DNA from: a candidate division WOR-3 bacterium
Lineage (GTDB): Bacteria > SDB-A
Direction: 5' to 3'
Assembly (NCBI GenBank): GCA_016934535.1
Contig: JAFGSQ010000043.1
Coordinates: 1-32,035, forward strand
DNA length: 32,035 nt
Shown here: positions 62 through 31,213 of the stretch, piece by piece
How the letters are laid out: every line of letters begins with the position of its first letter
How positions within the stretch are numbered: the first letter of the stretch is position 1
Position numbers and translations under genes: made by a program
Notes under the pieces: generated by a model
Told to the model about the DNA's origin: nothing
Database searches by the model: none
The model's input: the letters and a program-made list of their open reading frames with translations, nothing else

Positions 62-73
62 ATAGAGATTTTA

Positions 74-102
74 ACTTTAATTATATTTGAAGTTTGTGTC
101 AA
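74..102 (-). promoter_or_regulatory. sigma70-type promoter for tRNA-Ala
   Basis: Minus strand TTGACA (102-97), 17-nt spacer, TAAAGT (79-74), ending 12 nt upstream of the tRNA 5' end. Confidence 0.6.
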
Positions 103-117
103 TATCTTTCGGAAGCA

Positions 118-894: not shown

Positions 895-1811
895 CAGGCC
901 ACCAGATAGTCGAAAACAGATTGAAGGTTGTCATCGGACACTTCTATTTCTTCGACGTCTATAGAGTGATTGACGATTTTTTCGGTGAGAAGTCTGATAA
1001 AAAGATCTCTGTTTTGTGTTTTCACTGTCAGTTCTTCATCAGCGAAATCCAGTCCGAAAACACAATCGTTTTCAAGCAGAAGTTTGGCTAGTTTCTTCGG
1101 CTGGGTCAGTTTGATCTTTACAATGTGCGGTTTAGAATCTATGAGGCCTCTAATGTAATGAATATTGCCCTGAGCGAATATCTTCCCCTGATGTATCAGT
1201 ATAATCTCGTCCGTCATCATCTCGACCTCAGGCAAAACGTGAGAAGAAACGAGGACTGTTTTTCCGTTTTTTGAAAAATCCCTGACAATATCCATGACTT
1301 TTATCCTCCAAACCGGATCGACGCCATTGAGAGGCTCATCAAGCAGGAGCAGGTCCGGTTCATGAGAAATGCTTTGTGTGATCCGCAGTCTCTGTCTCAT
1401 GCCCATGCTGAATGTTCCGATCTGTCTCGACGCCGATTCGAAAAGCCCGAGTCTTTTGAGAGAATCTTCCGCTCTGTTTTTAGATTCTTCGACTGCATAG
1501 CCATGAAGCCTGAGGAGATTGAAAACGAATTCAAAAGCTGTCATATTCTTGAAATATGAATCGAATTCGGGGCAATAACCTATCCTCCTGAATACGTGGT
1601 CTACCGAGAATATGTCTTCGCCGAAAACCTTCACTTTTCCTATGTTGGGTTTTATCTGTCCCGCTACAAGCTTTAGAAAAGTGGATTTACCGGCTCCGTT
1701 AGGACCGAGAAGCCCGATGACGCCCTCGCCGATGTCGAGAGTGATGTCGCTGACACCGAGAACTTTTCCGTACCATTTTGATACTTCAATCACTTCGACT
1801 ATCTTATTCAT
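894..1811 (-). CDS. ABC transporter ATP-binding protein
   Basis: Walker A GPNGAGKST, signature FSMGMRQR, Walker B LLLLDEP, SSH switch. Confidence 0.96.
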   Translation of the reverse strand: MNKIVEVIEVSKWYGKVLGVSDITLDIGEGVIGLLGPNGAGKSTFLKLVAGQIKPNIGKVKVFGEDIFSVDHVFRRIGYCPEFDSYFKNMTAFEFVFNLLRLHGYAVEESKNRAEDSLKRLGLFESASRQIGTFSMGMRQRLRITQSISHEPDLLLLDEPLNGVDPVWRIKVMDIVRDFSKNGKTVLVSSHVLPEVEMMTDEIILIHQGKIFAQGNIHYIRGLIDSKPHIVKIKLTQPKKLAKLLLENDCVFGLDFADEELTVKTQNRDLFIRLLTEKIVNHSIDVEEIEVSDDNLQSVFDYLVA

Positions 1812-2663
1812 CTATTTTCTCTCCATTCTTCCTATTTGGGCGTGAAGCAGAAATACGAAAAATAAAGAAAGCAGAACCATATAAAAAGTTGCAATCAGGT
1901 CCATGATTCTGAAACCTCCCGCTCTTCCGAAAAACAGATTTCCGGTGCAATCGACCAGCATCGCAATTGAAGTAAAACTGAATATGTCGCTTCTGAACAC
2001 TTCTTTGAGCATACCGTAGACGGCGAGACCCAAAAAATACACAACAAAAACAATCACGCTGACGAATCTTGAATTGTCCGTGAAACTAGATACGAGAAGT
2101 GTAAAAGAAGAAAAAAATACCGATACGACAACAGAAAACGCCATACAGGAAAGAAGCGACACCGCGCTCATAGTGAAAGACGGAGAAAACACGGCTTTAA
2201 GTAAAACGAGGATCACTCCGGGCACTAAAGTAACACAGAGCATGTAAAATCCGATCACTGACATTTTCCCGGTGATGTAGTCTATTTTTCCTATGGGTCT
2301 CGAAAAATAAAGCGAAACCGCGTTTGTTTTAATGTCTTTCGAAATTAATTCCGAACCCGCTATCAGGCTGATGAGCAGCAATGTAAAAATCATGTAGCCG
2401 TTGACGTAATACAATCTGAGAATGTTTCTTATCGAGGACAGAGATTCAATGTTTTCCTGGATGAAATTGAGCTCGGGTTTTGAAGTGACGTACACAGCAA
2501 TGAGGAAAAAAGCGAGCTGAAGAGCCGACATAGCCAAAACGAGTTTCAGTAGTTTTTTTGAAAACACATAAACAATTCCGCCGCGGGAAATGGGCAGCCA
2601 TGGAAATCTACTGTGCTGAAGTTCGCCGTTCCAGCGAAAATATCCCTTTTTTCTGATTTTCAA
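1812..2663 (-). CDS. ABC-2 type transporter permease
   Basis: TM-rich; ISKDIKTNAVSLYFSRPI..YITGK motif; TTG start overlaps the upstream TGA. Confidence 0.88.
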   Translation of the reverse strand: MKIRKKGYFRWNGELQHSRFPWLPISRGGIVYVFSKKLLKLVLAMSALQLAFFLIAVYVTSKPELNFIQENIESLSSIRNILRLYYVNGYMIFTLLLISLIAGSELISKDIKTNAVSLYFSRPIGKIDYITGKMSVIGFYMLCVTLVPGVILVLLKAVFSPSFTMSAVSLLSCMAFSVVVSVFFSSFTLLVSSFTDNSRFVSVIVFVVYFLGLAVYGMLKEVFRSDIFSFTSIAMLVDCTGNLFFGRAGGFRIMDLIATFYMVLLSLFFVFLLHAQIGRMERK

Positions 2664-3917: not shown

Positions 3918-5079
3918 CGGACAGCTGGTTTTCTTCCGAATATTTTGGGATATTTTCATCAATAATATTTTTTTCAGATATCCTCGTCAACAGCCTTGTC
4001 AACAGAGCAACAACGGGAGAGGCTAGAATCAAACCAGGAACTCCGAACATTGAAGCGCCAACCATCAGCGAAAACATAACAACCACAGGATTCAAACCCA
4101 TTGAAGTTCCCATAATGTTGGGAGTAATGACAAAGGCGAGAAGGATCTCTTCTATCACAAAAACAACTCCGGCTTTCATAGACATCACTATGGGATTTGG
4201 TCCTGTAAATGTTATGAGCAGGGTTACAATAACAGTGAAAAGAAACCCGAAATTCGGTATGACGGAAAATATTGCGGCTAAAACTCCCAGTAAGACAGAA
4301 TACCTGACTCCCATCACGCTAAGGCCGATTCCAACGATTAATCCGTCGAGAATTGAAACTATTATCTGGCTTCGAATATACAATCCTATGACAGCGTCAG
4401 CTTCTTTGAGAATGAATTTTGACTTTTCAAGTATTTTTTCTGAAAGGAATTTCTTGAAAAAATCTTTTAAACTTGCGGCTTCCTTGAGATAAAGAAAGCT
4501 GATTATCGGTACGATTATTATGAACCATACCGTGTTTATGATAATCAACAGGACATCTTTAATTTTCAAAAGACTGCCCTGGACGTCCTGTTGTCCTATA
4601 GTAATTATTTTCGTTAGGTCAATACCGAGGTTCGTCAGGACATCGTTTTTGTCTATCCAGCTTTGAGCGACGTCAATCCTTTCATTTAACCATTCAATTA
4701 TCACAGGCAGGTATGTTATGAAATTCGTCATCTGAGTGATAAGAACCGGGACAAGGATGACAAGAAAAACGACCAAAAATGACAAAATAACAAGTTCAGC
4801 AATAATTATCGAAATAATTTTCGGGATTTTGTAAGATTCCAGTTTTTTAACGAGAGGATAAATTACATAAGCGAGAATAAAAGCCAGCACGAATGGAAGA
4901 ACGACAATCTTGATTTTCAACAGCACCCAAAGCAGTATCACAGCAAGAGAAAGAAGTAAAAACGGCTTTACCCATTGGGATTTTCTCTGCGGCAACAGAA
5001 GCATTACAGTCAACATAGCGACAAAAGGGGGCGAAAGGACGTCTCTTGCAGACCATAAAAGAAGTCCGAAAAGTCCCAT
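3910..5079 (-). CDS. AI-2E (PerM/UPF0118) family transporter
   Basis: PFVLAFILAYVIYPLV, YIRSQIIV, IPNFG and PNIMG..MGLNP motifs. The true start may be slightly upstream (ATT at 5112). Confidence 0.92.
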   Translation of the reverse strand: MGLFGLLLWSARDVLSPPFVAMLTVMLLLPQRKSQWVKPFLLLSLAVILLWVLLKIKIVVLPFVLAFILAYVIYPLVKKLESYKIPKIISIIIAELVILSFLVVFLVILVPVLITQMTNFITYLPVIIEWLNERIDVAQSWIDKNDVLTNLGIDLTKIITIGQQDVQGSLLKIKDVLLIIINTVWFIIIVPIISFLYLKEAASLKDFFKKFLSEKILEKSKFILKEADAVIGLYIRSQIIVSILDGLIVGIGLSVMGVRYSVLLGVLAAIFSVIPNFGFLFTVIVTLLITFTGPNPIVMSMKAGVVFVIEEILLAFVITPNIMGTSMGLNPVVVMFSLMVGASMFGVPGLILASPVVALLTRLLTRISEKNIIDENIPKYSEENQLSDE

Positions 5080-5107
5080 GATTAGAATTTTATTCTGCCA
5101 TTGCTCT

Positions 5108-5644
5108 TTAATTCATACCCTCCAGATAAACTCTTGAAACATCGGCCTCAAGAGTATAAGGGTATTCTCTGACTATTTCCAGAAAAATCTCTTTTGCTTT
5201 GTAATACTCGGTGTCCAGAAGAATAACCGCGGCCTTGAGCATATTACCGGGACTTCCGCTATCAAGATAAAAACCTGCCGATTGAATCTCCAAACCTTCT
5301 TCAAAAAGAAATGCCGCTTTTTTTGCATACAACAGAGCCAATACTTCAACGGGAGGATTCTGTGACAAGTATCTGTCGCAAACCGCCAGTTCAGGGTTTC
5401 TGTCTATTTCGGCGACGCTGTCCCCCCAATGCCCCAATTCTTTGAGTTTTGCAAAGTAATTTATTCTGCCCACAACGTCATTGAAAAGCGTGTCATCAGT
5501 TGAAACAGCCAATTGATTGAAATACTCAAACGCTTCCGATGGACCTCTTTCAAAATAGATACTGTCACCTTCGGTTATTTTTGAATGCAAAATAGAACCG
5601 TTGAAGACAATCCACATGGTAAAACAAATATCAAAAACCTGCAT
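5108..5644 (-). CDS. Hypothetical protein with TPR-like C-terminus
   Basis: C-terminal YYKAKEIFLEIVREYPYT resembles a TPR/YfiO-type repeat; overlaps the upstream gene. Confidence 0.6.
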   Translation of the reverse strand: MQVFDICFTMWIVFNGSILHSKITEGDSIYFERGPSEAFEYFNQLAVSTDDTLFNDVVGRINYFAKLKELGHWGDSVAEIDRNPELAVCDRYLSQNPPVEVLALLYAKKAAFLFEEGLEIQSAGFYLDSGSPGNMLKAAVILLDTEYYKAKEIFLEIVREYPYTLEADVSRVYLEGMN

Positions 5645-8600
5645 CGTAATATCTTTTCAGGAAATGTTTCCAGAACAATTCCGGATTGGCACCGTAAGTG
5701 AATGGAACAGTTGAATTCATGATCAATTTCTCGTTTTCCAGGTAATTATCTATCCCTGTGAAGAATGGATAAGCGTAATGTCCCTCTGGCCTCTGAGCTG
5801 TCCTGACCGGCCTGGTTTGCTGTTCCCTCATTGATCTCTGGCTTTCAAGAAGCCTCTGAAGGATTCCTCTCTGCCTTTCTACAAGGTCACGGGAGATATC
5901 TCCTCTTTCAATCGCTTTCGCTGAGAGCTCCATCTGTCTTGCGATTTCTTCCAGTTCTGAAAGAATCCTGGCTGATCCCTGAGTTTGACCTGACATCTCG
6001 GAGAGTTTTTGTGACAGGGCTCTCTGATAAGCTCCCATTTCAGCCAATTGCCTCTGTGTAAGGTTCTGACTCCCCAGGATCCGCGTTAAAGAACTGTTTA
6101 TCTGAGCCTGTTCCCCTCCCATTTCAGACAACTGCTGAAGCATCCCTGAATTACCACAGGACATAGTATTTTCCATCATTCTGTTCATGCGCTCGAGCGA
6201 CTTGTAAGCGTCATTTGCGAGCTTCATTATCACAATGTGCTTTATCTGCTCCTCCGGTTTTCGCAATTCGTTTTCCATATCTGCAAGTATTCTTCCAAGA
6301 TCAGTTTCTATCAAAGATGTAAGAGAGGAAAGAGAGTCGAGGGTGTTTTTTGTTCGAACACATGAAGCGAGAGAAGCGGAAGAAAAAACCGGAGATAATT
6401 CTTTATTGTGAATGCTTTCTTCAAGCTCAGACATGCCAAGCATGCATTCCATCATTTCTTTTACGAGGGTCGATGCGGCTCCTCGTCTCATTCCGGACAT
6501 TGATTGTGAAGCTTTCTGAAGGTGAGAAGCCATCGAGGACAGTTTCTCAGTAAGTTCATCCGAAGGTTCAGCGGACGCCAAGGCTTTTTCATTTTCCTGG
6601 AGTGCCATTTCGCCTTCTCTCGACGCACTTTGAGTTTCAGTCGCAGCTTTTTCACCCATCATATCCTCGTCGAGATCCGATACTTCATCGAGTATTCTTT
6701 CAAGTTCGTCCCTGACATTTTCGAGTTGTCTTGTCGCAAGTTCCTGATTGTTCGTTTCGATCTCAGCCGAAACGTTTGCGATTTCCAGGGCTCTTCTGGC
6801 GAGTTCTTCCAGTTTTTTTTCCAGTTCAAGTCTTTTAAGCAGGTTGAGGGTTTTTTCGAGGGATTCAAGAAGGTCTCCGCTCTCAAGTTTCAACTGACCG
6901 AGTATTTCACTCATTTCATTTTCATCGGCGTTCTCTGCAAGTTCGTAGAGTTTTTCGAAAGCTTCTTTTGTCTGCTCATCCAGGACTTCTTCGTAAAGCC
7001 TTGCTATTTCAGCCGATTTTTCAAAGACGAGACTGTCCAACATGTATGACTCCATTGATGCATCAAAATACGCCCTCATCTCGTCCAAAGCCTTTGACAT
7101 TTCATCTACCAAAAGTCTGTGCTTTTTAAGCACTTCTTCAAAGTTTTCCCTGTCAGAAAAAGAAAGGGAGTCCGCCAGGATCAACCTTTGTTCGAGAAGC
7201 TCCAAATCTCTCATTATCTCGGATCCTTTTTCCCTGAAAGACACTGCTCTTTCAAAATCTGCTTTTTCGGAAGAATCGGCTGAAATGAATATTTCGTAAA
7301 GAGTCGGCATGATCAACAGAATCGTGTCTGAAAAACCTGTTTGTGGAGAAGGTCTGTTGTCTTTGACAGCGGCAAATACAAAAGCAGTCTCCCCGGGTTT
7401 TATTGTGAAGTCTCCGGCATTGAGGAGAAAATTTACTTCCAGGGGACCTTTCCCTTTTAGGAATAGTCCTTGAAAGGATTCTGTATTATCAGTACGGGAC
7501 ATAATGAGTTCGGCGTATGTCAAACCGTAGTCGTCTCTGGCGGTGATTTTGATGTCAAACTCAGATAAGTCTCCGGCTCTCAGAATTTTTTCCGGGGGAT
7601 ACGTTATCCTGCAATCCGGAGGCAGATCTTTGATAACCGCGACGATGAAATCGAGGTGTAAAGTGTCTCCCAAAACCGTCAAGGCTTCAACGAAGACACA
7701 TGATGACTCCGAGGCGGGGAATTCGAAAATGACCGTGTTGACGCTTGTTTCTTTGTTTATTTCAGCTCCTGAAATTTTCCACTCGACCGCATTTGCCGCG
7801 CTGAATAATTCGAATTTAAGAACGCTTCCTTCGGGCACCAGATATTTATTCTTAAATTCTAGCGGGTATTCTGTTTGGGCTATGTATGAAGGAAGCTCAA
7901 TGGAAGCTGATATAAACTCTATCGGAGGCGAGATAACATTTACAAACCCTTTTGCTAAAGTGTCAGTGCCGGAAACAAAATAATAATGTGTGTTTTTCTC
8001 AATTTCTCTGCAAAAGGCAAAAAATGTGTCTTCGGAATAATTGTGATCGAGTGTTTCCCCGTCCGCAATTACATGCAAATCCATGCCAGCTTTCACCGGA
8101 AAAATCGAAAATCTCAAATCCTGTCCCCAATATACCGTCGTGTCTCCGGAAGGAATAAATTTTTGTGAACCGTAATATTCTACGACAGAAACACCGAAAC
8201 GCGGAACAAATATCAGCACCGCAGACAAAACAAAAAATCCTGCGATGTCTAGCAATTTTTCGATGAATAAATTTTTGCTTTTGAGAAATCCGAGGCCGGT
8301 TTCGGCTGTTTTTTCCTTCAACTCATCCGATCCGGGCAATTCTAACGTACAAAATTCATGAGAAGCCTTTATCAAGCCTCTCGCTTCAGCCATCGCGTCA
8401 AATTCTGAAACGATAGTATTTTTTCTCAGTAATGAGGACAAAACTCCGGACAAAAATGACACGCCGGCAAAAATCGCCCATACAAGTCCAGGGGAAAAGA
8501 AAACTGAAAATAAAGCCAATAACCAGAAAAAGACGGCTATGCAACTGTAAAATGAATAAGCAATCGCTTTTGAATTGAAATTTCTAAAAAACTCATCCAT
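5631..8600 (-). CDS. Large membrane-anchored coiled-coil protein (DUF4175-like)
   Basis: 989 aa; N-terminal TM helices, D.PP...I..P and ARDDYGL Ig-like segment, AVKDN, long Glu/Gln-rich coiled coil, C-terminal RQRGILQRLLESQRS. Confidence 0.75.
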   Translation of the reverse strand: MDEFFRNFNSKAIAYSFYSCIAVFFWLLALFSVFFSPGLVWAIFAGVSFLSGVLSSLLRKNTIVSEFDAMAEARGLIKASHEFCTLELPGSDELKEKTAETGLGFLKSKNLFIEKLLDIAGFFVLSAVLIFVPRFGVSVVEYYGSQKFIPSGDTTVYWGQDLRFSIFPVKAGMDLHVIADGETLDHNYSEDTFFAFCREIEKNTHYYFVSGTDTLAKGFVNVISPPIEFISASIELPSYIAQTEYPLEFKNKYLVPEGSVLKFELFSAANAVEWKISGAEINKETSVNTVIFEFPASESSCVFVEALTVLGDTLHLDFIVAVIKDLPPDCRITYPPEKILRAGDLSEFDIKITARDDYGLTYAELIMSRTDNTESFQGLFLKGKGPLEVNFLLNAGDFTIKPGETAFVFAAVKDNRPSPQTGFSDTILLIMPTLYEIFISADSSEKADFERAVSFREKGSEIMRDLELLEQRLILADSLSFSDRENFEEVLKKHRLLVDEMSKALDEMRAYFDASMESYMLDSLVFEKSAEIARLYEEVLDEQTKEAFEKLYELAENADENEMSEILGQLKLESGDLLESLEKTLNLLKRLELEKKLEELARRALEIANVSAEIETNNQELATRQLENVRDELERILDEVSDLDEDMMGEKAATETQSASREGEMALQENEKALASAEPSDELTEKLSSMASHLQKASQSMSGMRRGAASTLVKEMMECMLGMSELEESIHNKELSPVFSSASLASCVRTKNTLDSLSSLTSLIETDLGRILADMENELRKPEEQIKHIVIMKLANDAYKSLERMNRMMENTMSCGNSGMLQQLSEMGGEQAQINSSLTRILGSQNLTQRQLAEMGAYQRALSQKLSEMSGQTQGSARILSELEEIARQMELSAKAIERGDISRDLVERQRGILQRLLESQRSMREQQTRPVRTAQRPEGHYAYPFFTGIDNYLENEKLIMNSTVPFTYGANPELFWKHFLKRYYDAGF

Positions 8601-17421: not shown

Positions 17422-18468
17422 TCACCTTACGATATTTAAAACTCTGCTTTCTGTTCTGTTTTGTAGTTTGATTTTTACAAGATAGACTCCTGTATTCAGG
17501 TCCGATAAATCGACTTCAATTTTTTCTTCTCCTTCTGCCGGGGTCAAAGACTTCACAATCCTGCCCGAAACGTCCAGTATATCAATAACTGTTCCAGTTT
17601 CCGCTGAACATGTAAAATATATAGTAGCGCAAGTCGAAACAGGATTAGGATAAATCATTAATAGTTCATTATAATTAGGGTCTGACGCGGGTGTTTCTTC
17701 AACGTACACCGGGACAAGATCTCCTATGTTTATTACCGAACTTTGATATATATGTTTGGCTGGAAGAACACCGGATTGCAGCCACGCGGCAAAAAAAATT
17801 TCATTTTCATCATAATGCCACCATGTTGTATCAAGTTGACAGCTCATATTGACCGTCACGGTATCGGGAAAAGTATCGGAAAAGAAAACATATGATCCAC
17901 CGTATAAAGGATACATTTTCCTCATAGGTTGGGCAAAAGAAGAAAAATATCCTGATCCGGAGTTGACGTGTTCTGAAACAGCTGAAATTTGAAGAAAATA
18001 AGTGCCTGGTCCCGGTTCTTCTTCCGCTATTATTTGTGCAATGATATTTCCTTCTTTTGTTGTGCTGTTATAAGTTCCGCTTAAATTGATCTCGACATAA
18101 CACGGTTCCGACATTGCACCTACGTATGCGTTTTCAAGAGCCTGAGGAGTTGGAGGGTAACTTACGTGAATTTGACCGTCCATATAATTATCCGGAACCC
18201 CTGTTACTCCGTAATACGATTTTCTTCCATTATTGTCTTCAGGATTATCTAGATAGAACGGGTCGGCAGATGAAGGCCAATTCACATGATATCTAATAAC
18301 CGTCAAGCTTTCAGCGTGATTGTCAATGAACTGAGTCATATTAGGTTCGTATTGAACACAAAAACTGCACGTGTGATTTGTAAAATTTTCCAGCATGGGT
18401 CGCCTTACGGCTGAATTCAATGACAGAGCCGCTGCCATTGAAAACACAACAATAATGATTTTCTTCAT
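17422..18468 (-). CDS. Secreted Omp28/thioredoxin-like protein with T9SS-type C-terminal domain
   Basis: Signal peptide; ENFT..TCSFC CxxC, RYH..WP...DPF, YYGVTGVP; C-terminal IYPNP...LDVSGRIV...GVYLVK. Confidence 0.85.
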   Translation of the reverse strand: MKKIIIVVFSMAAALSLNSAVRRPMLENFTNHTCSFCVQYEPNMTQFIDNHAESLTVIRYHVNWPSSADPFYLDNPEDNNGRKSYYGVTGVPDNYMDGQIHVSYPPTPQALENAYVGAMSEPCYVEINLSGTYNSTTKEGNIIAQIIAEEEPGPGTYFLQISAVSEHVNSGSGYFSSFAQPMRKMYPLYGGSYVFFSDTFPDTVTVNMSCQLDTTWWHYDENEIFFAAWLQSGVLPAKHIYQSSVINIGDLVPVYVEETPASDPNYNELLMIYPNPVSTCATIYFTCSAETGTVIDILDVSGRIVKSLTPAEGEEKIEVDLSDLNTGVYLVKIKLQNRTESRVLNIVR

Positions 18469-19218: not shown

Positions 19219-21564
19219 ATGAAAACGCTGTCGGTATTTTCTTTGCTGGCTCTGATGTTGTCAGTTTCAATTTCAGCGGAAGCGCTCTTTGAAGAACACA
19301 TTTTGTATCAAAATCTGGGAGGAGCCATATCAATTAACGGGTCTGATTTAAACGGAGACGGTTTCATAGACATAGTTTATTGTTCCTTTCTAAACAGTCA
19401 CATAAAGTGGCTCGAAAACGACGGCGGTCAGAATTTCACTTTTCACACAATCATTGAAGGATTCGCTAATCCGCGGGCTGTCGACACGGAGGACATTGAC
19501 GGGAACGGAACGACAGATATAGTCGCTTCAGGCAGAAACAAGATAAGCTGGTTCTCAAACGACGGCGCGGGAAATTTCACGGAGAACGTCATAACTACCG
19601 ACTGGTTCATAGTAAACGGTGTTCAGCTGACAGATGCGTTCACCGATTCAATAATTGACATAAACTCTGACGGGAAAGTAGACATACTCGCAACTTCCTG
19701 CACTTCAGGCGTGATGGGCTGGTTCGAAAACGACGGAGCGGGTAATTTCACTGAACACATAGTTAAAGACAACTGGACTCTTGTCAGTGAAGCCTCCTCC
19801 GCTGACATAGATTCTGACGGTGACCAGGACATATTCGCCGCGGCTCAGGCAAGCGGTATATGGTGGTTTGAAAACGACGGTTCAGAGAATTTTACCGAAC
19901 ATCTTATATTCAACGGCTGGGTAAAACCCAACAGAATTCAAGCAGGCGACATAGACGGGGATGGCGACGTTGATTTTGTGGCCGGATCGTGCGGGGCGAG
20001 CGCTGTGATCGGGTGGTTTGAAAACGACGGATCGGAAAATTTCACTTGCCATCCCCTCAGGACAGGATTCGGCGGGCCGAGAACTCCGATAGTAAAGGAT
20101 ATAGACGATGACGGCGACGTAGACATAATAGCCACGGCCTGGTCTTCTTCCATAACCGTTTATTTTGAAAACGACGGAAATCAAAATTTCGATCAGTACG
20201 TGATCAGCACCGACGCTTACGATCTTCTCGATATCGCAGTCGCCGACCTCGACTCAGACGGCGACAAGGATCTTTTGGGCGGCAGTGCCGAAGCCGCAGC
20301 AAACCATATCAGATGGTGGGAAAGCATAGATTCATTCGTCGTTGCTGATTTCACCAGCGACCTTTATTCTGGACACGCCCCTTTGACCGTACAATTTTCA
20401 GACATGACACGTGCCAAACCAGCGGTAAATTACTGGGCGTGGGATTTCGACTCCGACGGAACCATTGACTCATACGATGAAAATCCTTCGTGGATCTACA
20501 ACTCACCGGGAGTTTATTCGGTCACGTTGATTAGCTCAAATTCCCAGATTTCAGACACATGCATTGAGGACAGTCTGATTTCAGTTTTTGACGGCGAGAG
20601 CGCTCTAAGGTTTTTTACGGTTTACAGTTCTGCAATGTGTCCTTGTTCACCCGAAATAAACATCACGGATTCTTTGACTGTCGAAGCCTGGATATATCCT
20701 GTGAGCTGGGGATCAAACGCTTCACTTGGTTACGGAACGATACTTGATAAAACCAACTTTTCTTTGGTCCTTTTCAAAAATGTATACGGCAGAAACTGCC
20801 TTGCATTAAAATTAAAACACGAGGGAGGTGTCAACAGTCTGGCTGTTACACCCGATTCTTCTATACAACTCAACGGATGGCAGCATGTTGCGGCAACATA
20901 CAGTTATGCCGACAGCAGTGTAAGAATGTTCATAAACGGAGTTGAACAGTCACTTACACTTAATCCATCTCCATCCGGAAAGATTGCAGACAATGCCAAT
21001 TTGAATCTTTCTATCGGCTTGAATCAGGTAAACAACTTCAGATTCGACGGAATAATTGACGAAGTCCGGTTATGGAACATCGCCAGGACGCCTCAGGAAA
21101 TTCAAAACAGCATGGGAGCCTGCCTTTCTGGCAGTGAACTGGGCCTCGCCGGCTACTGGAAAATGAACGAAGCCAACGGAGACACTTTGTTTGACAACTC
21201 TCCAAACTCTGATCATTTCTCGCTTGTTGGAACAGAATGGGTACAGGGAACGCCATTTTACCCAACCGGAATCGAAGAAATCATATTTCCCGCATTTCCA
21301 GCCGAAGTCGTTTCAGATTTCAACTGCAGATGGACGGACGGATTCATCTTCAATTTCGATTTCAGACTTTCTGCAGACAAAGATGTATCCGTCTCTTTAT
21401 ACGACGTTCTCGGAAGAGAAGTAAGAAAAATTTCAAACGGCCACCTCGAAAGCGGAGTTCACGAGCTTTCGCTAAACATGTCGCCTCATCCGGCTGGACA
21501 GTACTTTTTAGTTATAAATACAAACAACACGGTTTTCTCCAAAAAAATTGCCCTGTTCAGATAG
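19219..21564 (+). CDS. Secreted FG-GAP/VCBS repeat protein with PKD, LamG-like and T9SS-type C-terminal domains
   Basis: AAGGAGG RBS, signal peptide; repeated D.DGDGD.D and W(F/L)ENDG..NF units; G.APLTVQF.D..WAWDFD PKD; TVEAWI..WQHVAATY..F.G.IDEVRLW LamG; YDVLGREV..GQYF CTD. Confidence 0.9.
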   Translation: MKTLSVFSLLALMLSVSISAEALFEEHILYQNLGGAISINGSDLNGDGFIDIVYCSFLNSHIKWLENDGGQNFTFHTIIEGFANPRAVDTEDIDGNGTTDIVASGRNKISWFSNDGAGNFTENVITTDWFIVNGVQLTDAFTDSIIDINSDGKVDILATSCTSGVMGWFENDGAGNFTEHIVKDNWTLVSEASSADIDSDGDQDIFAAAQASGIWWFENDGSENFTEHLIFNGWVKPNRIQAGDIDGDGDVDFVAGSCGASAVIGWFENDGSENFTCHPLRTGFGGPRTPIVKDIDDDGDVDIIATAWSSSITVYFENDGNQNFDQYVISTDAYDLLDIAVADLDSDGDKDLLGGSAEAAANHIRWWESIDSFVVADFTSDLYSGHAPLTVQFSDMTRAKPAVNYWAWDFDSDGTIDSYDENPSWIYNSPGVYSVTLISSNSQISDTCIEDSLISVFDGESALRFFTVYSSAMCPCSPEINITDSLTVEAWIYPVSWGSNASLGYGTILDKTNFSLVLFKNVYGRNCLALKLKHEGGVNSLAVTPDSSIQLNGWQHVAATYSYADSSVRMFINGVEQSLTLNPSPSGKIADNANLNLSIGLNQVNNFRFDGIIDEVRLWNIARTPQEIQNSMGACLSGSELGLAGYWKMNEANGDTLFDNSPNSDHFSLVGTEWVQGTPFYPTGIEEIIFPAFPAEVVSDFNCRWTDGFIFNFDFRLSADKDVSVSLYDVLGREVRKISNGHLESGVHELSLNMSPHPAGQYFLVINTNNTVFSKKIALFR

Positions 21565-23847: not shown

Positions 23848-24876
23848 TTAAACCAGTTCGATTTTTCCTTCTCTGTCGGTAAATCTGCCTATCACGCTGG
23901 CTTTCAATCCTTTTTCGACGAGATCTTCCACGTAATTATCAGCATCGGACAGAGCCATAAGAAGCCCTCCCGATGTCTGGGGGTCGAAAAGGACTTCAAA
24001 TATCAGATCGTCAATTCCGCCTTTTATGTTCACGGAGCATCCGTAGGCTTTTTTGTTCGCGCCTCCTCCCCCCGGTATCATGCCCGAAGAGGCGTGATCG
24101 AGTACCGAAGAAAAAAGCGGCACCATACATGTTTGAACCTCAGCTCCCGTACCTGAACCTGTTATCATCTCTCTCAGATGACCAATCAGTCCAAATCCAG
24201 TGACGTCAGTACAGGCGCTCGGAGAATATTTTTTTGCCGTCTCCGCGGCTATCATATTCAGCGCGGACATCGATGCGACTATCTCTTTGACGTCGGCTTC
24301 AGAGGCTATTCCGGCTTTAATGGCGGTAGAAATTATCCCCGTGCCCAGCGGTTTGGTCAAAACCAAACTGTCGCCGGCTTTCGGAGTGTTGTTCTTCCAC
24401 AACTTTGACGGATGGACTTGACCGGTGACGGACAGTCCGAACTTCAGCTCTTTATCTTCTATCGAATGCCCTCCGACAAGAAATGCGCCGGACTCATCCA
24501 CTGCGCTCATAGCACCCTTGAGTATTTCTATGAAAACCGCATTTTCGAGCTTTCCGACGGGGAAACAGCACACGTTCAGGACAGTCAAAGGAGTACCCCC
24601 CATCGCGTATATGTCGCTCAGAGAATTTGCCGCCGCTATTCTGCCAAACGAAAAAGGGTCGTCCACTATAGGAGTAATGAAATCAATGGTCTGAACGAGA
24701 GCCGTCTCTCCGTTAAGGATATAGATGCCGGCGTCGTCAGAGCTCTCAATGCCTGCCAGGACACGGGAGTCTTTTCTGACGTCCAGTTTTTTAAGCAAAT
24801 CGCTCAGGTCGCACGGACCTATTTTGGCAGCTCAACCGGCTTTTTCAGAGAAATTAGTCAAATAGATTTTTTCCAT
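23848..24876 (-). CDS. selD: Selenide, water dikinase (selenophosphate synthetase), Sec-containing, 342 aa
   Basis: ATG at 24876 with AGAGG RBS gives MEKIYLTNFSEKAG-U(TGA 24834-32)-AAKIGP, in frame with DDAG, QTIDFITP, AAAN.LSD.YAMGG, GGHS, DVTGFGL.GH and DPQTSGGLL motifs. Confidence 0.96.
24806..24820 (-). promoter_or_regulatory. Bacterial SECIS-like hairpin of selD
   Basis: Minus strand AGGTC-CGTGC-GACCT; stem starts 11 nt and loop 16 nt after the UGA; G at loop position 2. Confidence 0.75.
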
Positions 24877-24886
24877 TTTTTCCTCT

Positions 24887-25117
24887 TTACAACTTACGGA
24901 TGTCTTTGATTTCTACAGCCGATCGGTTAACTTCCTCCTTCACTTTCTCGTAATCCTCCCACGAAAATCTCAGGCTCGTTCCACAGTCTGAATCCAAATG
25001 GCGCGGAGTAGGAACCAGTTTTGTCCGGACATTCTTTGTACGGAGTATACTCTCAAGTTTGAAAGCCGATGACACCGAATGAAATAACACGACGCCAAAT
25101 AATTCGCTGTCAGGCAC
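24887..25117 (-). CDS. DUF3343 family protein (putative Se/S carrier)
   Basis: FHSVSSA.K.E..L......LVPTPR.L.SDCG..LR motif; likely GTG start at 25117 overlapping the csd stop. Confidence 0.88.
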   Translation of the reverse strand: MPDSELFGVVLFHSVSSAFKLESILRTKNVRTKLVPTPRHLDSDCGTSLRFSWEDYEKVKEEVNRSAVEIKDIRKL

Positions 25118-26279
25118 TTTTACACCTTCCGGCAATTTCAGTGATCGCTTTGACGGTGTAATCAATTTCGTCTTCTCCCGTAAAATACCCCGGCGCCAGG
25201 CGTATAGTTCCGTCCGGATACGTGCCTATGGTCCTGTGGCAGGAAGGACTGCAGTGCAATCCCACTCTCGATTGTATTCCGTATTTTTCGTCGAGTATGC
25301 CTCCCGCTTCGCTTACGCTTACACCGTCTATAGTCACCGAAAAAGTTCCGGACTGCTTTTGAGGCGAAAATGATTTGTAAACTTTCACCTCTTGTATTTC
25401 TTCGAGTTGTTGGGTAAACCTTAAAAATTTTTTTCTGGCGCCGTTTAGAATATTTTTCAAGCCGGTTTTTTTTACCCATCTAAGGCCGGCTAAAAGTCCG
25501 GCCGCTCCAACCGCGTTCATAGTCCCGCTTTCGAGTTTGTCGGGGAAAAAATTGGGCTGACATTCTTCAACAGAAAAACTTCCCGTTCCTCCTCTTTTCA
25601 GCGGCCTCATTTTTTTTTCGTCCACTTTGTTTCCTACGAGAAGAGCTCCGATACCCATGGGGCCGTAGAGCAGTTTATGCCCTGTCACAGCCAGAAGATC
25701 TATGTTCATTTTATGCATGTCAATTTCGAATTCACCCGCGCTCTGAGCGGCATCGACGAGGAAAAGCAATCCGTGTTCACGCGTTATTGCGCCTATCTCT
25801 TCGACCGGCGCAATCGATCCTATAACGTTTGAACAGTGATTTACGATGAACATTTTCGTGTTCTTGTTTATCGCTTTTTCGAAATCCCTGGGATCAATTT
25901 CACCTTGCTCCGAAGCCTGCAACGCAGTGTACTCGACGGATTTTATTTCTCTCAAATAATTAAGAGGCCTCATGACTGCGTTGTGTTCGAGAGAGGTCGT
26001 CACAACGTGGTCTCCCGGATCCAGCAGTCCGAAAAGTACGGTGTTTATTGATTCTGTAGCATTCAATGTAAAAACCACTCTCAACGGATCTTTCAAACCG
26101 AAGAAACCCGCCATCTCTTCGCGGCATTCGTAAGCCATGCGTCCTGCCTCAACCGACATCCGGTGCGAACCCCTCGACGGACTGGATCCGGGATATTCCA
26201 TGAAAGCCCTCACGGCCTCGATAACTTCAGGCGGTTTCGGCCACGAAGTTGCTGAATTGTCCAGATAAATCAGGTTCAT
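25110..26279 (-). CDS. Cysteine desulfurase/selenocysteine lyase-like PLP enzyme (aminotransferase class V)
   Basis: IYLDNSATSWPKP, EHNAV.RP, DAAQSAG, TGHK (PLP lysine), RVGLHC catalytic motif. Confidence 0.93.
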   Translation of the reverse strand: MNLIYLDNSATSWPKPPEVIEAVRAFMEYPGSSPSRGSHRMSVEAGRMAYECREEMAGFFGLKDPLRVVFTLNATESINTVLFGLLDPGDHVVTTSLEHNAVMRPLNYLREIKSVEYTALQASEQGEIDPRDFEKAINKNTKMFIVNHCSNVIGSIAPVEEIGAITREHGLLFLVDAAQSAGEFEIDMHKMNIDLLAVTGHKLLYGPMGIGALLVGNKVDEKKMRPLKRGGTGSFSVEECQPNFFPDKLESGTMNAVGAAGLLAGLRWVKKTGLKNILNGARKKFLRFTQQLEEIQEVKVYKSFSPQKQSGTFSVTIDGVSVSEAGGILDEKYGIQSRVGLHCSPSCHRTIGTYPDGTIRLAPGYFTGEDEIDYTVKAITEIAGRCKSA

Positions 26280-26280
26280 T

Positions 26281-26505
26281 TTATTTCGACAATTTTACCC
26301 TGAATTCGCCCCCGTTTGAAACTTCAATTTCTGTTTTAAATCCTTTTTTTTCAGCCGCCCTCCTGACGTTGTCCCTCGACGTAGTCGTGTCTACCAAGAC
26401 GATTATCGACCCTTCTTCGAATTTCTTTATGGCGGAAAGAGTTTCGAGAACCGGCTGCGGGCATGATAAGCCCCGGGCGTCTACAATCATATCTTCCATT
26501 TTCAT
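26281..26505 (-). CDS. TusA/SirA (YedF-like) sulfur/selenium transferase
   Basis: VDARGLSCPQPV motif, 74 aa; ATGA overlap with the yedE stop. Confidence 0.93.
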   Translation of the reverse strand: MKMEDMIVDARGLSCPQPVLETLSAIKKFEEGSIIVLVDTTTSRDNVRRAAEKKGFKTEIEVSNGGEFRVKLSK

Positions 26506-27632
26506 TCTCCTTTTTTTATTTTCAGGCTTTTCATAGTAAAACCTACAAACAGGCAGAACAACAACCCCATGATTACGGCGTATTTCCCGAAAAGCCCCGG
26601 ACCTCCCACTAAGATCGTCCCTGCTTCGCTCAATTTATCGGGAGACGACGCGAGCAGGAAATTGTGAGAAAATCCCGCGCCGACTATCATGCCCGCGATA
26701 AAAACGCCGGCGTCCTGGTCTCCTTCTCCCGAAAGAAACAACTGCCTTCCCGGGCATCCGCCGGCCAGAGCGAAAGCAAGACCTGCAAGAGCCATGCCGA
26801 GAAAATTCCAGACATGAGATGAATGCGAAACCGGCTGAAGAACGAATCCGGCGTGGAACTGTTTTAATATTATGTTCGTGACCAAAGCGGTTAATACCAG
26901 AGCCGTTACGCCACTCATGAGGTGCCAGTCCTTTATGAGAACGACGTCTCTGACCGCACCCATCGTGCAGAATCTCGACCTCTGGGCTAAAAATCCTATT
27001 AAAAGACCTGCACCCAGGGATATCAGAACAGGTGCGAATATAGAACCGGGCCCGGTTTCGCTGAAGAATATCGGCGCTCCTTCGCCGAAAGAAACTCTGA
27101 AAATGAGAAAAAGAAAAAGAGCTATCATGAAAATAGGAAAAACGAGTCCGCCGGCGTATGAAGTTTTGACGCTTTTCCCAAGAGAATAACCTTTCTTTAA
27201 AAATATTGACCCTGCGACTACTCCTGAAAAAAGTCCCAGTATGCCTGATATTGCGTTGCCGTCGCCGGCTGACAGCCTTAAAAGAGCTCTCCAGGGACAA
27301 CCCAGGAATACCAGAGCACCTATCATCGCGAACATTCCGAGGAAAAATCTTACGAGAGGAGAAGATCCTCCCCTCGGCTTGAATTCCCTGAAAATCAGCG
27401 CCGATGCCATCGCGCCAAGAACGAAGCCTATTATCTCGGGGCGGATGTACTGGACAGCTGCGTTCCTGTGAAGCCCGAGCGCTCCTGCTATGTCCCTTTC
27501 GAAACATGCGACGCAGACTCCCATGTTGGCGGGGTTGCCAAATTTCTGCAGGAGGACTGCGACTAATCCTATTACCGCCCCTGATATCACGATCCCAGGT
27601 TTTGACGAGAAAAATTTCGTTATTCTGGCCAC
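26502..27632 (-). CDS. yedE: YedE family putative selenium transporter (YeeE/YedE)
   Basis: GNP.NMG.C.ACF.RD, GCP (twice), QRSRFC motifs; TM-rich; first gene of the selD operon. Confidence 0.9.
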   Translation of the reverse strand: MARITKFFSSKPGIVISGAVIGLVAVLLQKFGNPANMGVCVACFERDIAGALGLHRNAAVQYIRPEIIGFVLGAMASALIFREFKPRGGSSPLVRFFLGMFAMIGALVFLGCPWRALLRLSAGDGNAISGILGLFSGVVAGSIFLKKGYSLGKSVKTSYAGGLVFPIFMIALFLFLIFRVSFGEGAPIFFSETGPGSIFAPVLISLGAGLLIGFLAQRSRFCTMGAVRDVVLIKDWHLMSGVTALVLTALVTNIILKQFHAGFVLQPVSHSSHVWNFLGMALAGLAFALAGGCPGRQLFLSGEGDQDAGVFIAGMIVGAGFSHNFLLASSPDKLSEAGTILVGGPGLFGKYAVIMGLLFCLFVGFTMKSLKIKKGE

Positions 27633-28003: not shown

Positions 28004-29836
28004 ATGCCGAATCAGAAGCGAAGAAAAGACATACGCAACATAGCGATAATAGCACACGTAGATCACGGAAAGACAACTCTTGTCGACGCTCTGCTCCGTC
28101 AGACCGGAGCTTACGAGTTCAAGGAAGGCGAACATATGATAATGGACGTCAATCCCCTCGAAAGAGAAAGGGGAATTACCATTGTCTCTAAAAATGCCTC
28201 TATACCATACAAAGGAATACAGATAAACATAGTCGACACTCCCGGTCACGCGGACTTCGGAAGCGAGGTCGAAAGAATACTGAAAATGGTCGACGGAGTC
28301 CTGCTTCTTGTGGACGCATTCGAGGGTCCAATGCCTCAAACGAAATTCGTTCTCAAAAAATCTCTCGAACTTCACCTCAAACCGATTCTCGTAATTAACA
28401 AGATAGACAGAAAAAATTGCAGACCTCTCGAGGTCGCCGACATGACATTCGATCTTTTCTGTGAGCTCAACGCCACCGACGAACAGCTCGATTTTCCCAT
28501 AATATATACTTCTGCAAAAAACGGCATTGCCACTCTCGATCTCGACGAAGAAGGAAAAAACATGAAGCCTCTACTTGAAACGATTTTACGCAGAGTGCTT
28601 CCTCCGGTCGCCGATCCTGAAAAACCTTTTCAGATGCTCATCACGATGCTCGATTACGATCCCTACGTCGGAAGATATTCGATAGGAAGAATTTTCCACG
28701 GAAAAATCGAAACAGGCAATCCCGTCGTTCTCGTAAAAACAGACGGGTCGGTGAAACTGTCCAAGATTTCAAAAATACTAAAATACAAAGGCATGAAAAG
28801 AATTGAAGTGCAGTCGGCTCTTGCGGGAGACATTATTCTCGCGGCCGGAATTGACGAAGTCCATGTCGGCGAGACTTTATCTGCACCCGATTACCCTGTA
28901 GCCCTGCCGAAAATCAAAATCGACGAACCGACAATATCAATAGTCTTTTCCCACAACACGAGTCCTCTTTCGGGAAAAGACGGCGGGCGTTTTCTGACAT
29001 CAAGACACATACGGGAAAGGCTCGAATACGAAGCTCTTACTAATGTGGGAATAAAGATAGAGAAATTCGACGGCTCGGAAAAAATAAAAGTTTCCGGCAG
29101 AGGCGAATTGCATTTGTCAATCCTCATCGAGACAATGCGAAGAGAAGGTTACGAATTCGAAGTGTCGGCTCCGGAAGTGATCATGATCAAAATGAACGGC
29201 GACGCTTTGGAACCTGTCGAAGAAGTTCTCGTGGAAATTGACCAGGGTTATCAGGGAAGCGTAATAGAAGCTCTCGGCCCGAGGAGAGCTGAGCTCAAAA
29301 GCATGCAGACCACCTCGATTGGGACATTGCGCCTCGAATTTCTTATACCGACGAGAGGGCTTATGGGATTCAGGAGCGAACTCCTGAGGATGACGCGCGG
29401 AACGGGCACGATGTATCAGAATTTTTACATGTATCAGAAGCACAAAGGTGAAATCCCTCGTCGCAGAGGTCCGACACAGATATCAATGAACGCGGGTAAA
29501 GCTTCCGGTTACGCCCTCTTCAGCCTGCAGGAAAGGGGCGAGATATTCATAAGACCCGGTGACGACGTCTACGAAGGCATGATAATAGGGACAAGTCACA
29601 AAGCGAGGGATCTTGTCGTCAACGCGACAAAGGAAAAAAAACTGACTAACATAAGGGCGGCCGGTTCCGACGAAGCGATAAGACTGACACCGCCGAGGGA
29701 AATAACGCTCGAATTCGCACTCGAATTCATTGAAAATGACGAGCTCCTCGAAATAACACCGAAAAACATACGTTTCAGAAAAAGATTTCTCACGGAAAAC
29801 GAAAGAAAAAGAAACGATCCGGAGAGAAACACTTAA
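28004..29836 (+). CDS. typA: Translational GTPase TypA/BipA
   Basis: RNIAIIAHVDHGKTTLVD, ERERGITI, DTPGHADF, NKID, GRGELHL, KKLTNIRA and ELLEITP motifs. Confidence 0.98.
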   Translation: MPNQKRRKDIRNIAIIAHVDHGKTTLVDALLRQTGAYEFKEGEHMIMDVNPLERERGITIVSKNASIPYKGIQINIVDTPGHADFGSEVERILKMVDGVLLLVDAFEGPMPQTKFVLKKSLELHLKPILVINKIDRKNCRPLEVADMTFDLFCELNATDEQLDFPIIYTSAKNGIATLDLDEEGKNMKPLLETILRRVLPPVADPEKPFQMLITMLDYDPYVGRYSIGRIFHGKIETGNPVVLVKTDGSVKLSKISKILKYKGMKRIEVQSALAGDIILAAGIDEVHVGETLSAPDYPVALPKIKIDEPTISIVFSHNTSPLSGKDGGRFLTSRHIRERLEYEALTNVGIKIEKFDGSEKIKVSGRGELHLSILIETMRREGYEFEVSAPEVIMIKMNGDALEPVEEVLVEIDQGYQGSVIEALGPRRAELKSMQTTSIGTLRLEFLIPTRGLMGFRSELLRMTRGTGTMYQNFYMYQKHKGEIPRRRGPTQISMNAGKASGYALFSLQERGEIFIRPGDDVYEGMIIGTSHKARDLVVNATKEKKLTNIRAAGSDEAIRLTPPREITLEFALEFIENDELLEITPKNIRFRKRFLTENERKRNDPERNT

Positions 29837-29919
29837 GTGTAATCATACTTTATTTTAATTTGAATTTCGTCGAATGAATTCATTTTGATTATCTATTATG
29901 TCGGTATAAAATTGTACTT

Positions 29920-30210
29920 ATGAAAATAATTGAATTCTCCAATCTGAATCTCGTTTCATACATAAAAAAACGAAACGGATCGCTGAACATATCGATTCAA
30001 GCTATTATTCAGGGGTGATGAAACGCCTCGTACGGCCCGGTCGGGTCTCTTGTCGAAAATTATGAAGCAAGCGGAGTACTCGCTTTTGAATACGAAGGAC
30101 TCAGAATCAATATTGAAAAAACCGTGATGGAAAAATATTCAGAAAACGGAACACTGAAGTTTTACACAGACAATTTCGGCTGGACCGAGATTTTTTTTTC
30201 AGAAATTTGA
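29920..30210 (+). CDS. Candidate small selenoprotein (96 aa) with tandem UGA-UGA (G-U-U), HesB-like/CC-motif type
   Basis: Single frame from ATG 29920 to TGA 30210, interrupted only by TGA TGA at 30016-30021; fills the typA/GTPase gap; SECIS-like hairpin directly downstream of the UGAs. Confidence 0.72.
30034..30047 (+). promoter_or_regulatory. SECIS-like hairpin downstream of the tandem UGA
   Basis: GGCCC-GGTC-GGGTC (4 G-C pairs plus 1 G-U); loop begins with G, 17 nt after the second and 20 nt after the first UGA; GC-rich island in an AT-rich gene. Confidence 0.62.
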
Positions 30211-30238: not shown

Positions 30239-31213
30239 TCACAAGTGGAGCTCGACTACGTCTCCGTCCGACAGAGAATGGTCTCTCTGCACCATCTGTC
30301 CGTCATAAACGCCTTTTCCCCATACTTTTGCCATTTTCAGGTTCTTTCTGAAATCCTGATGAACGGTTACGGCGAAATCCTCTATCGTAGCGCCTTTTTT
30401 GAGGATGAAAGGTGTGGACATGTCGGCATGGAAACCAGGTTTTTTGGAATACACTCTTATGCAATCGAGTTCCCGGAAAAATCTTTCTTTAATACACTCA
30501 ATATTCCATCCTGTTTTTGATGAAACAGGAACTGATGCGAAAGGGCAATCGTAAAGTTTTTTGAATATCTCGTAATCTTCCGCGAAATCGTCACCATCGT
30601 GTTTGTTGACAATAAGTATAAATTTGGATTTGTGTGATTTTTTCACGTAATCATCTCCCACAGGCTCAATTCTGTGTTCTTTGAGTATCTCGAGGGATTC
30701 GGCTGTCTGCGTGAAAGGATCGCCCTCCAGATCTACGACCAGGGCTATTAAGTCCGCTCTTTTCAAAAGGTCGAAAAGCTGAGGTTCGACGAAATCACGA
30801 GTGAGAGGAGGAGTATCAACCAACTGTATGAGTATGTCTTTATATTTCATCATACCGGGAAGAGGGCTCCATGTTGTGTGGGGAGAAGAATTTATTTCAG
30901 GTTTTGCGTGGGTGAGGACAGACAATAGTGATGATTTCCCGGTGTTCGGAGCGCCGGCTAATGCTATTTGTCCGGCTCCTTCTTTCTTTAAAGAAAAAAG
31001 CGACTCGTGCCTTGATACATTTTTTTTAGAATGACGGGCTTCTTTGAACTTCGAGAGTTTTTTTCTAAGATCGGCTCTGAGTTTGTCGGTACCTTTGTGT
31101 TTGGGGACAGTGCCAATGAGTTCCTGCAGCAGAGTTATCTTTTCCTGCAGGTCCAGAGCTTCTTTGTATCTTTTTTCAGCCTCAAAATACTCTGGAGGAA
31201 GATTTGTAGGCAT
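30239..31213 (-). CDS. OBG/DRG-like GTPase with C-terminal TGS domain
   Basis: MPTNLPPEY..PKHKGT N-terminus, GAPNTGKS, DTPP, NKHD, TGS segment HQDF...AKVWG...L.DGDVVELH. Confidence 0.9.
   Translation of the reverse strand: MPTNLPPEYFEAEKRYKEALDLQEKITLLQELIGTVPKHKGTDKLRADLRKKLSKFKEARHSKKNVSRHESLFSLKKEGAGQIALAGAPNTGKSSLLSVLTHAKPEINSSPHTTWSPLPGMMKYKDILIQLVDTPPLTRDFVEPQLFDLLKRADLIALVVDLEGDPFTQTAESLEILKEHRIEPVGDDYVKKSHKSKFILIVNKHDGDDFAEDYEIFKKLYDCPFASVPVSSKTGWNIECIKERFFRELDCIRVYSKKPGFHADMSTPFILKKGATIEDFAVTVHQDFRKNLKMAKVWGKGVYDGQMVQRDHSLSDGDVVELHL

Follow-up and report, generated by a model that had tools for sequence, protein, structure and literature searches.

Two adjacent in-frame UGA codons upstream of one SECIS-like hairpin in a candidate selenoprotein gene of a candidate division WOR-3 bacterium

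The window analysed here is a stretch of 32,035 nucleotides (nt) from a candidate division WOR-3 bacterium (GenBank assembly GCA_016934535.1, contig JAFGSQ010000043.1, positions 1 to 32,035 of the forward strand). Near its end, typA (28004-29836, plus strand) and a convergent gene coding for an Obg-like GTPase (30239-31213, minus strand) are separated by a gap of 402 nt, whose G+C content is 35%. This gap contains a small gene with two adjacent in-frame TGA codons, which are followed by a hairpin that resembles a selenocysteine insertion sequence (SECIS). The initial annotation of the window proposed that this single hairpin could serve both UGA codons, and the arrangement on which it relied, TGA TGA followed by GGCCC-GGTC-GGGTC with the apical loop 20 and 17 nt from the two UGA, is exact in the sequence. 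We consider it rather probable, although far from certain, that the gene codes for a 96-residue selenoprotein with an IscA/HesB fold, in which an adjacent pair of selenocysteines (Sec, U), in a G-U-U-N context between strands 2 and 3, results from the recoding of both UGA via that one hairpin. The elements of the gene are the following.

29920-30210, plus strand: small gene of 96 codons followed by a TGA stop codon (30208-30210), with TGA TGA in frame at codons 33-34
30016-30018, plus strand: first in-frame TGA (codon 33); the base of the hairpin is 15 nt and its loop 20 nt downstream
30019-30021, plus strand: second in-frame TGA (codon 34); the base of the hairpin is 12 nt and its loop 17 nt downstream
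30022-30033, plus strand: spacer AACGCCTCGTAC, 12 nt, codons N-A-S-Y, from the second UGA to the hairpin
30034-30047, plus strand: SECIS-like hairpin GGCCC-GGUC-GGGUC
30034-30038 and 30043-30047, plus strand: arms of the hairpin stem, 5 base pairs (bp) including one G.U
30039-30042, plus strand: apical loop GGUC of the hairpin
30031-30054, plus strand: best-conserved block of the gene

Stop codons are abundant in five frames of the 402-nt gap, and the sole open frame, were it not for the TGA TGA, runs from the ATG at 29920 to 30210; when the gap was shuffled 2000 times, only 11 of the shuffled sequences had a run free of TAA and TAG as long as the observed one. A genome-wide reassignment of UGA was considered and rejected, because TGA is used as an ordinary stop and terminates 16 of the 28 long open reading frames (ORFs) of the window. 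Hopping or frameshifting at the UGA codons was also rejected: the frame is the same before and after them, and there is no matching landing codon downstream.

Homologues were sought in 80 loci fetched through the neighbouring GTPase, in which a local tblastn search was run with the small protein. A single relative was found, with an expectation value (E) of 5e-28, on contig CAYNIW010000003.1 (locus L001, hereafter "the relative"). The GTPase of this locus is 72% identical to that of the window, and its typA is 79% identical in nucleotides. The homologous gene (5843..5550, minus strand of the relative) codes for 97 residues, with 57% protein identity to the product of the window gene, and its codons 33-34 are likewise TGA TGA. 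As for the window gene, its immediate upstream neighbour is typA, and it starts about 31 nt past the typA stop.

The two genes are identical at 192 of 291 nt (66%) and differ by one whole-codon (3-nt) insertion or deletion, located downstream of the UGA codons. The proportions of nonsynonymous and synonymous differences (pN/pS) are 0.27/0.88 for codons 1-32 and 0.25/0.52 after the UGA codons; by this measure, selection acts on the protein on both sides of them. The TGA TGA has been retained across about 1.5 substitutions per synonymous site. A conserved in-frame UGA with coding conservation on both sides, which is one criterion for a prokaryotic selenoprotein gene, is what we find here, and the tandem UGA lie in frame in a conserved gene that is apparently translated.

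One may ask whether there is a gene at all, or whether the open frame and the hairpin occur by chance in an intergenic region. The region is A+T-rich, no database family is matched, and gene callers would not list this ORF. We consider this explanation very improbable, and indeed close to refuted, since the match (E 5e-28) has the same position relative to typA, although the typA genes of the two genomes are only 79% identical; the nucleotide identity of the two genes (66%) argues against a recent exchange of the same DNA, and the predicted protein has a confident fold (see below).

A second possibility is that translation normally ends at the UGA UGA, so that the product is a 32-residue peptide and the downstream part is a pseudogene relic or is rarely made. 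A tandem stop terminates translation efficiently, the searches described below gave neither a Cys homologue nor any other member of the family, and in E. coli only about 30-40% of the ribosomes insert Sec at one UGA, according to the accessible text of PMC4513850. We nevertheless believe that this is unlikely: the 62 downstream codons are open in both species, the length difference is a whole codon, and pN is lower than pS in this part too (0.25 against 0.52). The part of the protein that follows the UGA codons matches the relative at E 1.5e-19 on its own. Besides, the earliest in-frame ATG, GTG or TTG past the UGA codons of the window gene is at codon 68, so the conserved residues 35-67 require read-through of the UGA codons. 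Last, the downstream part forms one confident predicted domain with the first 32 residues.

The latter point comes from structure prediction. AlphaFold2, run on the alignment of the two sequences, predicts one compact domain, with a predicted local distance difference test score (pLDDT) of 88.1 and a predicted template modelling score of 0.79 (the five models range from 43 to 88 in pLDDT); the U-U loop lies between strands 21-30 and 36-45. The model obtained from the single sequence was poor (pLDDT 47.4) and was kept out of the fold search. When the former model was compared to the Protein Data Bank (PDB) with Foldseek, ranks 1-12 were all occupied by proteins of the IscA/SufA/HesB type or by related "Fe-S biosynthesis" proteins, the best match having an E of 4.7e-3 and a probability of 1.00, with template modelling scores of 0.48-0.53. 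The confident single-domain fold across the UGA codons, together with these ranks, suggests that both halves, before and after the UGA codons, belong to one protein of IscA/HesB fold.

Neither the product of the window gene nor that of the relative contains any Cys, so that the two residues encoded by UGA are the only candidate reactive (chalcogen) groups. On account of the fold class and of this absence of Cys, our best guess is that the U-U pair may function as a vicinal diselenol/diselenide, either for redox chemistry or for the binding or trafficking of Se, S or soft metals. The IscA/SufA A-type Fe–S carriers have a C-terminal Cys pair; they are similar to the small protein in fold alone, for the latter lacks this pair, as it lacks any Cys. 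The first Cys of IscA is presumably located in a loop that is equivalent to the U-U loop. In terms of fold, the nearest named family is that of the HesB-like selenoproteins (TIGR01911), whose motif is UxGP, with one Sec, compared to UUNASYGP, with two Sec, here. The residues encoded by UGA are part of the loop that follows strand 2, with G-P a short way downstream, which is akin to the UxGP motif of the HesB-like proteins.

The searches with the small protein itself gave no family. Pfam and NCBIfam returned no match at E up to 1, and this includes TIGR01911 and Pfam Fe-S_biosyn. A word-indexed protein search returned none either, whether with the single protein, the two-sequence alignment or shorter fragments, and an all-against-all search over 1.84 billion representatives returned no match for E up to 0.001. 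A scan of genome contigs, a collection from which the genome of the window itself turned out to be absent, gave 116 pattern matches, none of which was confirmed; tblastn against plasmids and phages gave no relative, and a sequence search of the PDB gave only chance-level matches (E at least 0.3). Four weak and seemingly syntenic tblastn matches among the 80 loci (L028, L032, L021 and L027, E 0.05-0.8) were all rejected: that of L028 sits inside a long gyrA-like ORF, and the alignments of L032, L021 and L027 are near-identical and were taken as the same. Genes of this kind, with UU, escape standard gene calling and the protein databases, and neither protein, profile nor DNA searches with the protein itself gave a relative.

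Regarding the hairpin, the consensus of bacterial SECIS, as it appears in the accessible text of PMC13188914, consists of a loop of 3-9 nt, an upper stem of 4-16 bp, at least one G among loop positions 1 and 2, a distance of 16-37 nt between UGA and loop, and a minimum free energy (MFE) of -7.5 kcal/mol or lower. The hairpin that follows the tandem UGA has a 4-nt loop, GGUC, and a stem of 5 bp in the window (6 bp in the relative); two G, G30039 and G30040, occupy the first two loop positions, G30040 being fixed by a Val codon, and the distance from UGA to loop is 20 and 17 nt. The initial annotation cited the loop G and the spacing of the consensus for a hairpin that it took to be positioned for both UGA, and the published geometry bears it out. 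The hairpin alone has an energy of -6.5 kcal/mol in the window and of -8.9 kcal/mol, in its 6-bp version, in the relative, while the 55-nt fold that holds it has -10.3 and -14.1 kcal/mol, respectively; these are figures for two lengths, the accessible text of PMC13188914 not stating the stretch over which the consensus energy applies. With respect to energy the hairpin is a borderline case. In the hairpin scan it was the best consensus-type candidate for both UGA, and it appears in the MFE structure of folds that start at the UGA codons. A hairpin of consensus geometry at -6.0 kcal/mol or better follows 51 of the 1343 TGA triplets on the two strands of the window (3.8%).

Among the closest known elements is the SECIS of E. 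coli fdhF (formate dehydrogenase H), which is likewise a hairpin placed inside the gene, a short distance past the UGA, and has the identical loop GGUC. In the K-12 sequence the start of this loop is 18 nt past the UGA, compared to 17 and 20 nt here. On the contrary, the stem of fdhF is longer and in two parts, U17 being bulged, and only one UGA is served, across an 11-nt spacer, whereas the hairpin here has a stem of 5-6 bp without a bulge and two UGA, at 12 and 15 nt. The loop nucleotides G23 and U24 of fdhF are conserved positions, and U17 and G23 are contacts of SelB, according to the accessible text of PMC8659212.

The nucleotide conservation of the hairpin of the small gene is a stronger argument in its favour than its chance frequency or its folding energy. 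The initial annotation had named a lack of conservation in UGA-containing homologues as what would speak against the hairpin. The hairpin sequence 30034-30047 is identical, base for base, in the sole relative found (one homologue of one), and was not refuted on this count. It belongs to the block 30031-30054, in which 23 of 24 nt are identical in the two genes, compared to a median of 16 over 24-nt windows; the longest identical run, 17 nt, starts at 30031, and the next longest has 8 nt. The sole change in this block, T30048 to G in the relative, adds a sixth pair, with C30033. The spacer 30022-30033 differs at 3 of 12 positions, two of these differences being synonymous.

To separate the conservation of the RNA from that of the protein, identity between the window and the relative was counted at the four-fold degenerate sites of conserved residues. 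All four of these sites are identical in the codons of the hairpin, as are 6 of 7 in codons 39-45 and 4 of 17 in the rest of the gene, for a baseline of 114 of 322 (35%) in typA and the GTPase gene. Binomial and Fisher tests of the synonymous conservation of the hairpin give P of about 0.01, and 0.35^4 = 0.016 for a pre-specified hairpin. That all four hairpin sites are identical against such a baseline suggests a constraint on the nucleotides of the hairpin beyond that on the protein.

The window also contains a selD gene that is itself a selenoprotein gene, and other genes for the handling of selenium.

23848-24876, minus strand: selD of the Sec type (TIGR00476, E 6e-101), with its ATG at 24876
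24834-24832, minus strand: in-frame TGA of selD, codon 15, in the context G-U-A-A-K-I-G-P
minus strand, between this TGA and the selD hairpin: spacer GCTGCCAAAAT, 11 nt
24820-24806, minus strand: SECIS-like hairpin of selD, AGGTC-CGTGC-GACCT, with a loop that starts 16 nt after the UGA
24887-25165, minus strand: PF11823 Se/S-carrier-like gene of the selenium cluster
25110-26279, minus strand: cysteine-desulfurase/SclA-like gene of the selenium cluster
26281-26505, minus strand: YedF-like gene with a CPxP motif, of the selenium cluster
26502-27632, minus strand: yedE gene of the selenium cluster

The in-frame UGA of selD is at the usual GU(A)AK site, which supports the idea that the organism decodes Sec. 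The initial annotation also described this selD arrangement, TGA followed by AGGTC-CGTGC-GACCT with the loop 16 nt away, and it is confirmed on the minus strand. The features said to be common to selD and the small gene are all present: an in-frame UGA, a stem of 5 bp, a loop with G near its start (at the second position) and a 5' arm that encodes Gly-Pro in both. We do not agree, however, that the hairpin of the small gene mirrors that of selD. The likeness is that of SECIS in general; the loop GGUC is that of E. coli fdhF and not the 5-nt CGUGC of selD, and selD has one UGA and a weaker hairpin (-4.9 to -5.9 kcal/mol). The fold z-score for selD is -1.0 to -1.45.

The selenium genes form a compact cluster (23848-27632, minus strand) that is divergent from typA. 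In the relative this cluster is not next to typA, the gene beyond typA there coding for a choice-of-anchor B protein. A conserved linkage between the small gene and the selenium cluster was rejected for this reason; it is typA that lies next to the small gene in both loci.

It may be that the gene and the hairpin are real but that one or both UGA are read as Cys, by a tRNA(ReC)-type tRNA that depends on SelB and SECIS, so that the product has CU, UC or CC instead of UU. According to the accessible text of PMC13582414, about 56% of the genomes with UXXU-type hydrogenases contain tRNA(ReC)-like genes, compared to about 2.3% of other Sec-type genomes, and the same source proposes that either or both of two close UGA are read as Cys with tRNA(ReC). 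Sequence evidence cannot tell Sec from Cys in such a case. On the other hand, there is no tRNA(ReC)-type gene in the window, where the only tRNA is a tRNA-Ala(UGC) cut by the window start; TGY would be a cheaper way of encoding Cys, yet TGA TGA has been kept over the synonymous divergence given above, and the organism keeps a Sec-type selD with its selenium-handling cluster. On balance we find a reading of the UGA codons as Cys rather unlikely, although less so than a normal stop at the UGA UGA.

In bacteria a SECIS has to be located right behind its UGA, and each time SelB binds, a single Sec-tRNA is delivered. If both UGA are recoded as Sec through the hairpin 30034-30047, which is the most likely possibility in our opinion, the hairpin would have to bind SelB and be used twice. 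When the first UGA occupies the ribosome's A site, the base of the hairpin would be 15 nt downstream. After one translocation it would be 12 nt past the second UGA, compared to 11 nt in fdhF and in the organism's own selD. The hairpin could keep its fold at the mRNA entrance through just these two cycles, one after the other, and would present SelB.GTP.Sec-tRNA(Sec) twice, a second ternary complex being needed in the very next cycle. In the third cycle the distance to the hairpin would be down to 9 nt, less than the 11 nt that fdhF and selD have. A structural study of full-length SelB puts the loop G about 20 nt from the UGA.

Several observations weigh against this reading, and have to be set beside the evidence that supports it. 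Regarding the trait, selA, selB and selC are not found in the 32-kb window, and the sequence of the relative is only 9 kb long. No Cys-containing homologue was found in the protein, profile and plasmid/phage searches, which is unusual for selenoproteins. Two successive UGA should be costly, given the insertion by about 30-40% of the ribosomes at one UGA in E. coli; the yield of full-length protein would perhaps be low, and strongly dependent on selenium.

The other objections concern the hairpin. Taken alone, it misses the consensus energy of -7.5 kcal/mol in the window (-6.5), although it passes it in the relative (-8.9). Stretches of 41-66 nt in the window fold no better than shuffles, with MFE z-scores from +0.1 to +1.6; for the relative the z-scores are about -0.1 to -0.2. 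The proven SECIS of E. coli K-12 fdhF, folded alike as a control, has a z-score of only -0.76, so that this test has little power and we dropped it as a discriminator. The synonymous-site test relies on 4 to 7 sites only. The initial annotation called for stem covariation among homologues, and none can be demonstrated: the stem is invariant in the two sequences at hand, with 0 of 13 pairs compensatory. The conserved G-P-V-G-S leaves no choice for four of the five stem pairs or for the second loop G, so that hairpin and protein motif are inseparable; C30036-G30045 is the only stem pair made of two free synonymous sites, and independent information comes from no more than four synonymous sites. 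Finally, RNAalifold, run on the two sequences, favours a rival hairpin of 9 pairs (30012-30038, plus strand), whose 5' arm includes UGAUGA and which takes up the GGCCC arm; one U.G of this rival becomes U.A in the relative. On untranslated mRNA this rival hairpin could mask the UGA codons or compete with the SECIS fold.

These objections give weight to the idea that the selenoprotein is real but that the 14-nt hairpin is a by-product of G-P-V-G-S, or not the sole element, the recoding being due to larger, different or separate signals. The amino-acid constraint on the stem, the z-scores and the fold preferred by RNAalifold all go in this direction; in addition, the conserved CTTGTCG that follows the hairpin (30049-30055) pairs weakly with UGAUGA in one MFE structure, and some bacterial SECIS deviate from the consensus, as is said in the accessible text of PMC13188914. 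On the contrary, no better consensus-type candidate came out of the scan for either UGA, the synonymous sites of the hairpin are more often identical than the baseline, and GGUC is the proven loop of fdhF, at almost the same distance from the UGA. As to the rival hairpin, a ribosome positioned at the UGA codons would presumably have unwound it already. We therefore see a signal other than the 14-nt hairpin as improbable, albeit slightly less so than the reading of UGA as Cys discussed above, and we keep the recoding of both UGA through the hairpin 30034-30047 as our preferred explanation.

The use of one SECIS for two UGA has been proposed before. The UXXU-type selenoproteins, of which the Group 4 [NiFeSe] hydrogenases are an example, likewise have two close UGA upstream of one predicted SECIS, and it has been suggested for these hydrogenases that both UGA might be under the control of one SECIS downstream (accessible text of PMC13582414). 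Families of Prx-like, metal-binding and FmdB proteins are also of the UXXU type in Table 1 of PMC13188914. In UXXU-type genes the UGA are 9 nt apart and Cys-type homologues exist, whereas the UGA of the small gene are 0 nt apart and no Cys homologue was found. Since the UGA are adjacent, their decoding must fall in consecutive elongation cycles, unlike that of UXXU.

Adjacent Sec residues are also known, in algae: a protein disulfide isomerase (PDI_e) with the motif GUGUU has two consecutive Sec, and its authors called it the first such case (accessible text of PMC7539508). That system is eukaryotic, the protein has a PDI/thioredoxin fold, and the SECIS is in the 3' untranslated region and acts at a distance (same source), so that there is no spacing constraint. 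As for prokaryotes, Table 1 of a 2026 review (PMC13188914) gives 119 selenoprotein families or subfamilies, and the motifs in this table include UxxU, UxxxxU and CU, but no UU. We found no report of adjacent or tandem Sec codons in bacteria within the open-access literature that was searched. What is new here is therefore that adjacent Sec codons go with one SECIS of canonical appearance, in a family of small proteins that is itself new; if confirmed, it would be the first time that two selenocysteines are found side by side in bacteria. The claim taken as a whole, namely a first bacterial UU selenoprotein that founds a new family of IscA fold and whose synthesis requires two consecutive SelB-dependent recodings on one SECIS, we put forward tentatively, its chances being a little short of even.

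If it is true, a vicinal U-U pair would be the only reactive residues of the new family, and the gene would be a natural test of the spacing tolerance of SelB and of its turnover on the ribosome, the hairpin being at about the canonical distance from the second UGA and 3 nt farther from the first. Adjacent UGA raise two questions: does a single hairpin keep its fold and serve again in the next elongation cycle, and how much may the distance between UGA and hairpin vary? A conserved bacterial gene with UU would be a ready-made reporter of SelB processivity. It would also give chemistry a natural vicinal diselenide/diselenol, in a new small protein that may be involved in selenium or metal handling.

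Regarding the expression of the small gene, two short elements were noted.

29885-29912, plus strand: promoter-like site TTGATT-16-TAAAAT, which ends 8 nt before the ATG
30172-30199, plus strand: terminator-like hairpin and T-run, within the last codons of the small gene, before the stop at 30208

The promoter-like site is a match to the consensus only, 2 such sites being found for 1.1 expected from shuffles; if real, it would lead to a nearly leaderless transcript of the small gene. The stem of the terminator-like hairpin is not present in the relative, and this element may be due to chance or be part of the convergent GTPase gene.

The relative has an additional ORF of 191 residues (4972-5547 of its locus, plus strand), which codes for an M50B-like peptidase, lies between the GTPase gene and the UU gene and is absent from the window.

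The following features of the window lie away from the small gene.

1-61, minus strand: tRNA-Ala(UGC), cut by the window start, found by a match to Rfam and missed by ARAGORN
17422-18468, minus strand: protein with a type IX secretion system (T9SS) type A sorting domain
19219-21564, plus strand: protein with a T9SS type A sorting domain

The tRNA, the only one in the window, was considered as a possible selC and rejected, because its anticodon, UGC, is that of an Ala tRNA. The locus of the relative has a weak PorU-sortase-like match (30-2312, plus strand), which, together with the T9SS sorting domains, points to an organism that probably has type IX secretion.

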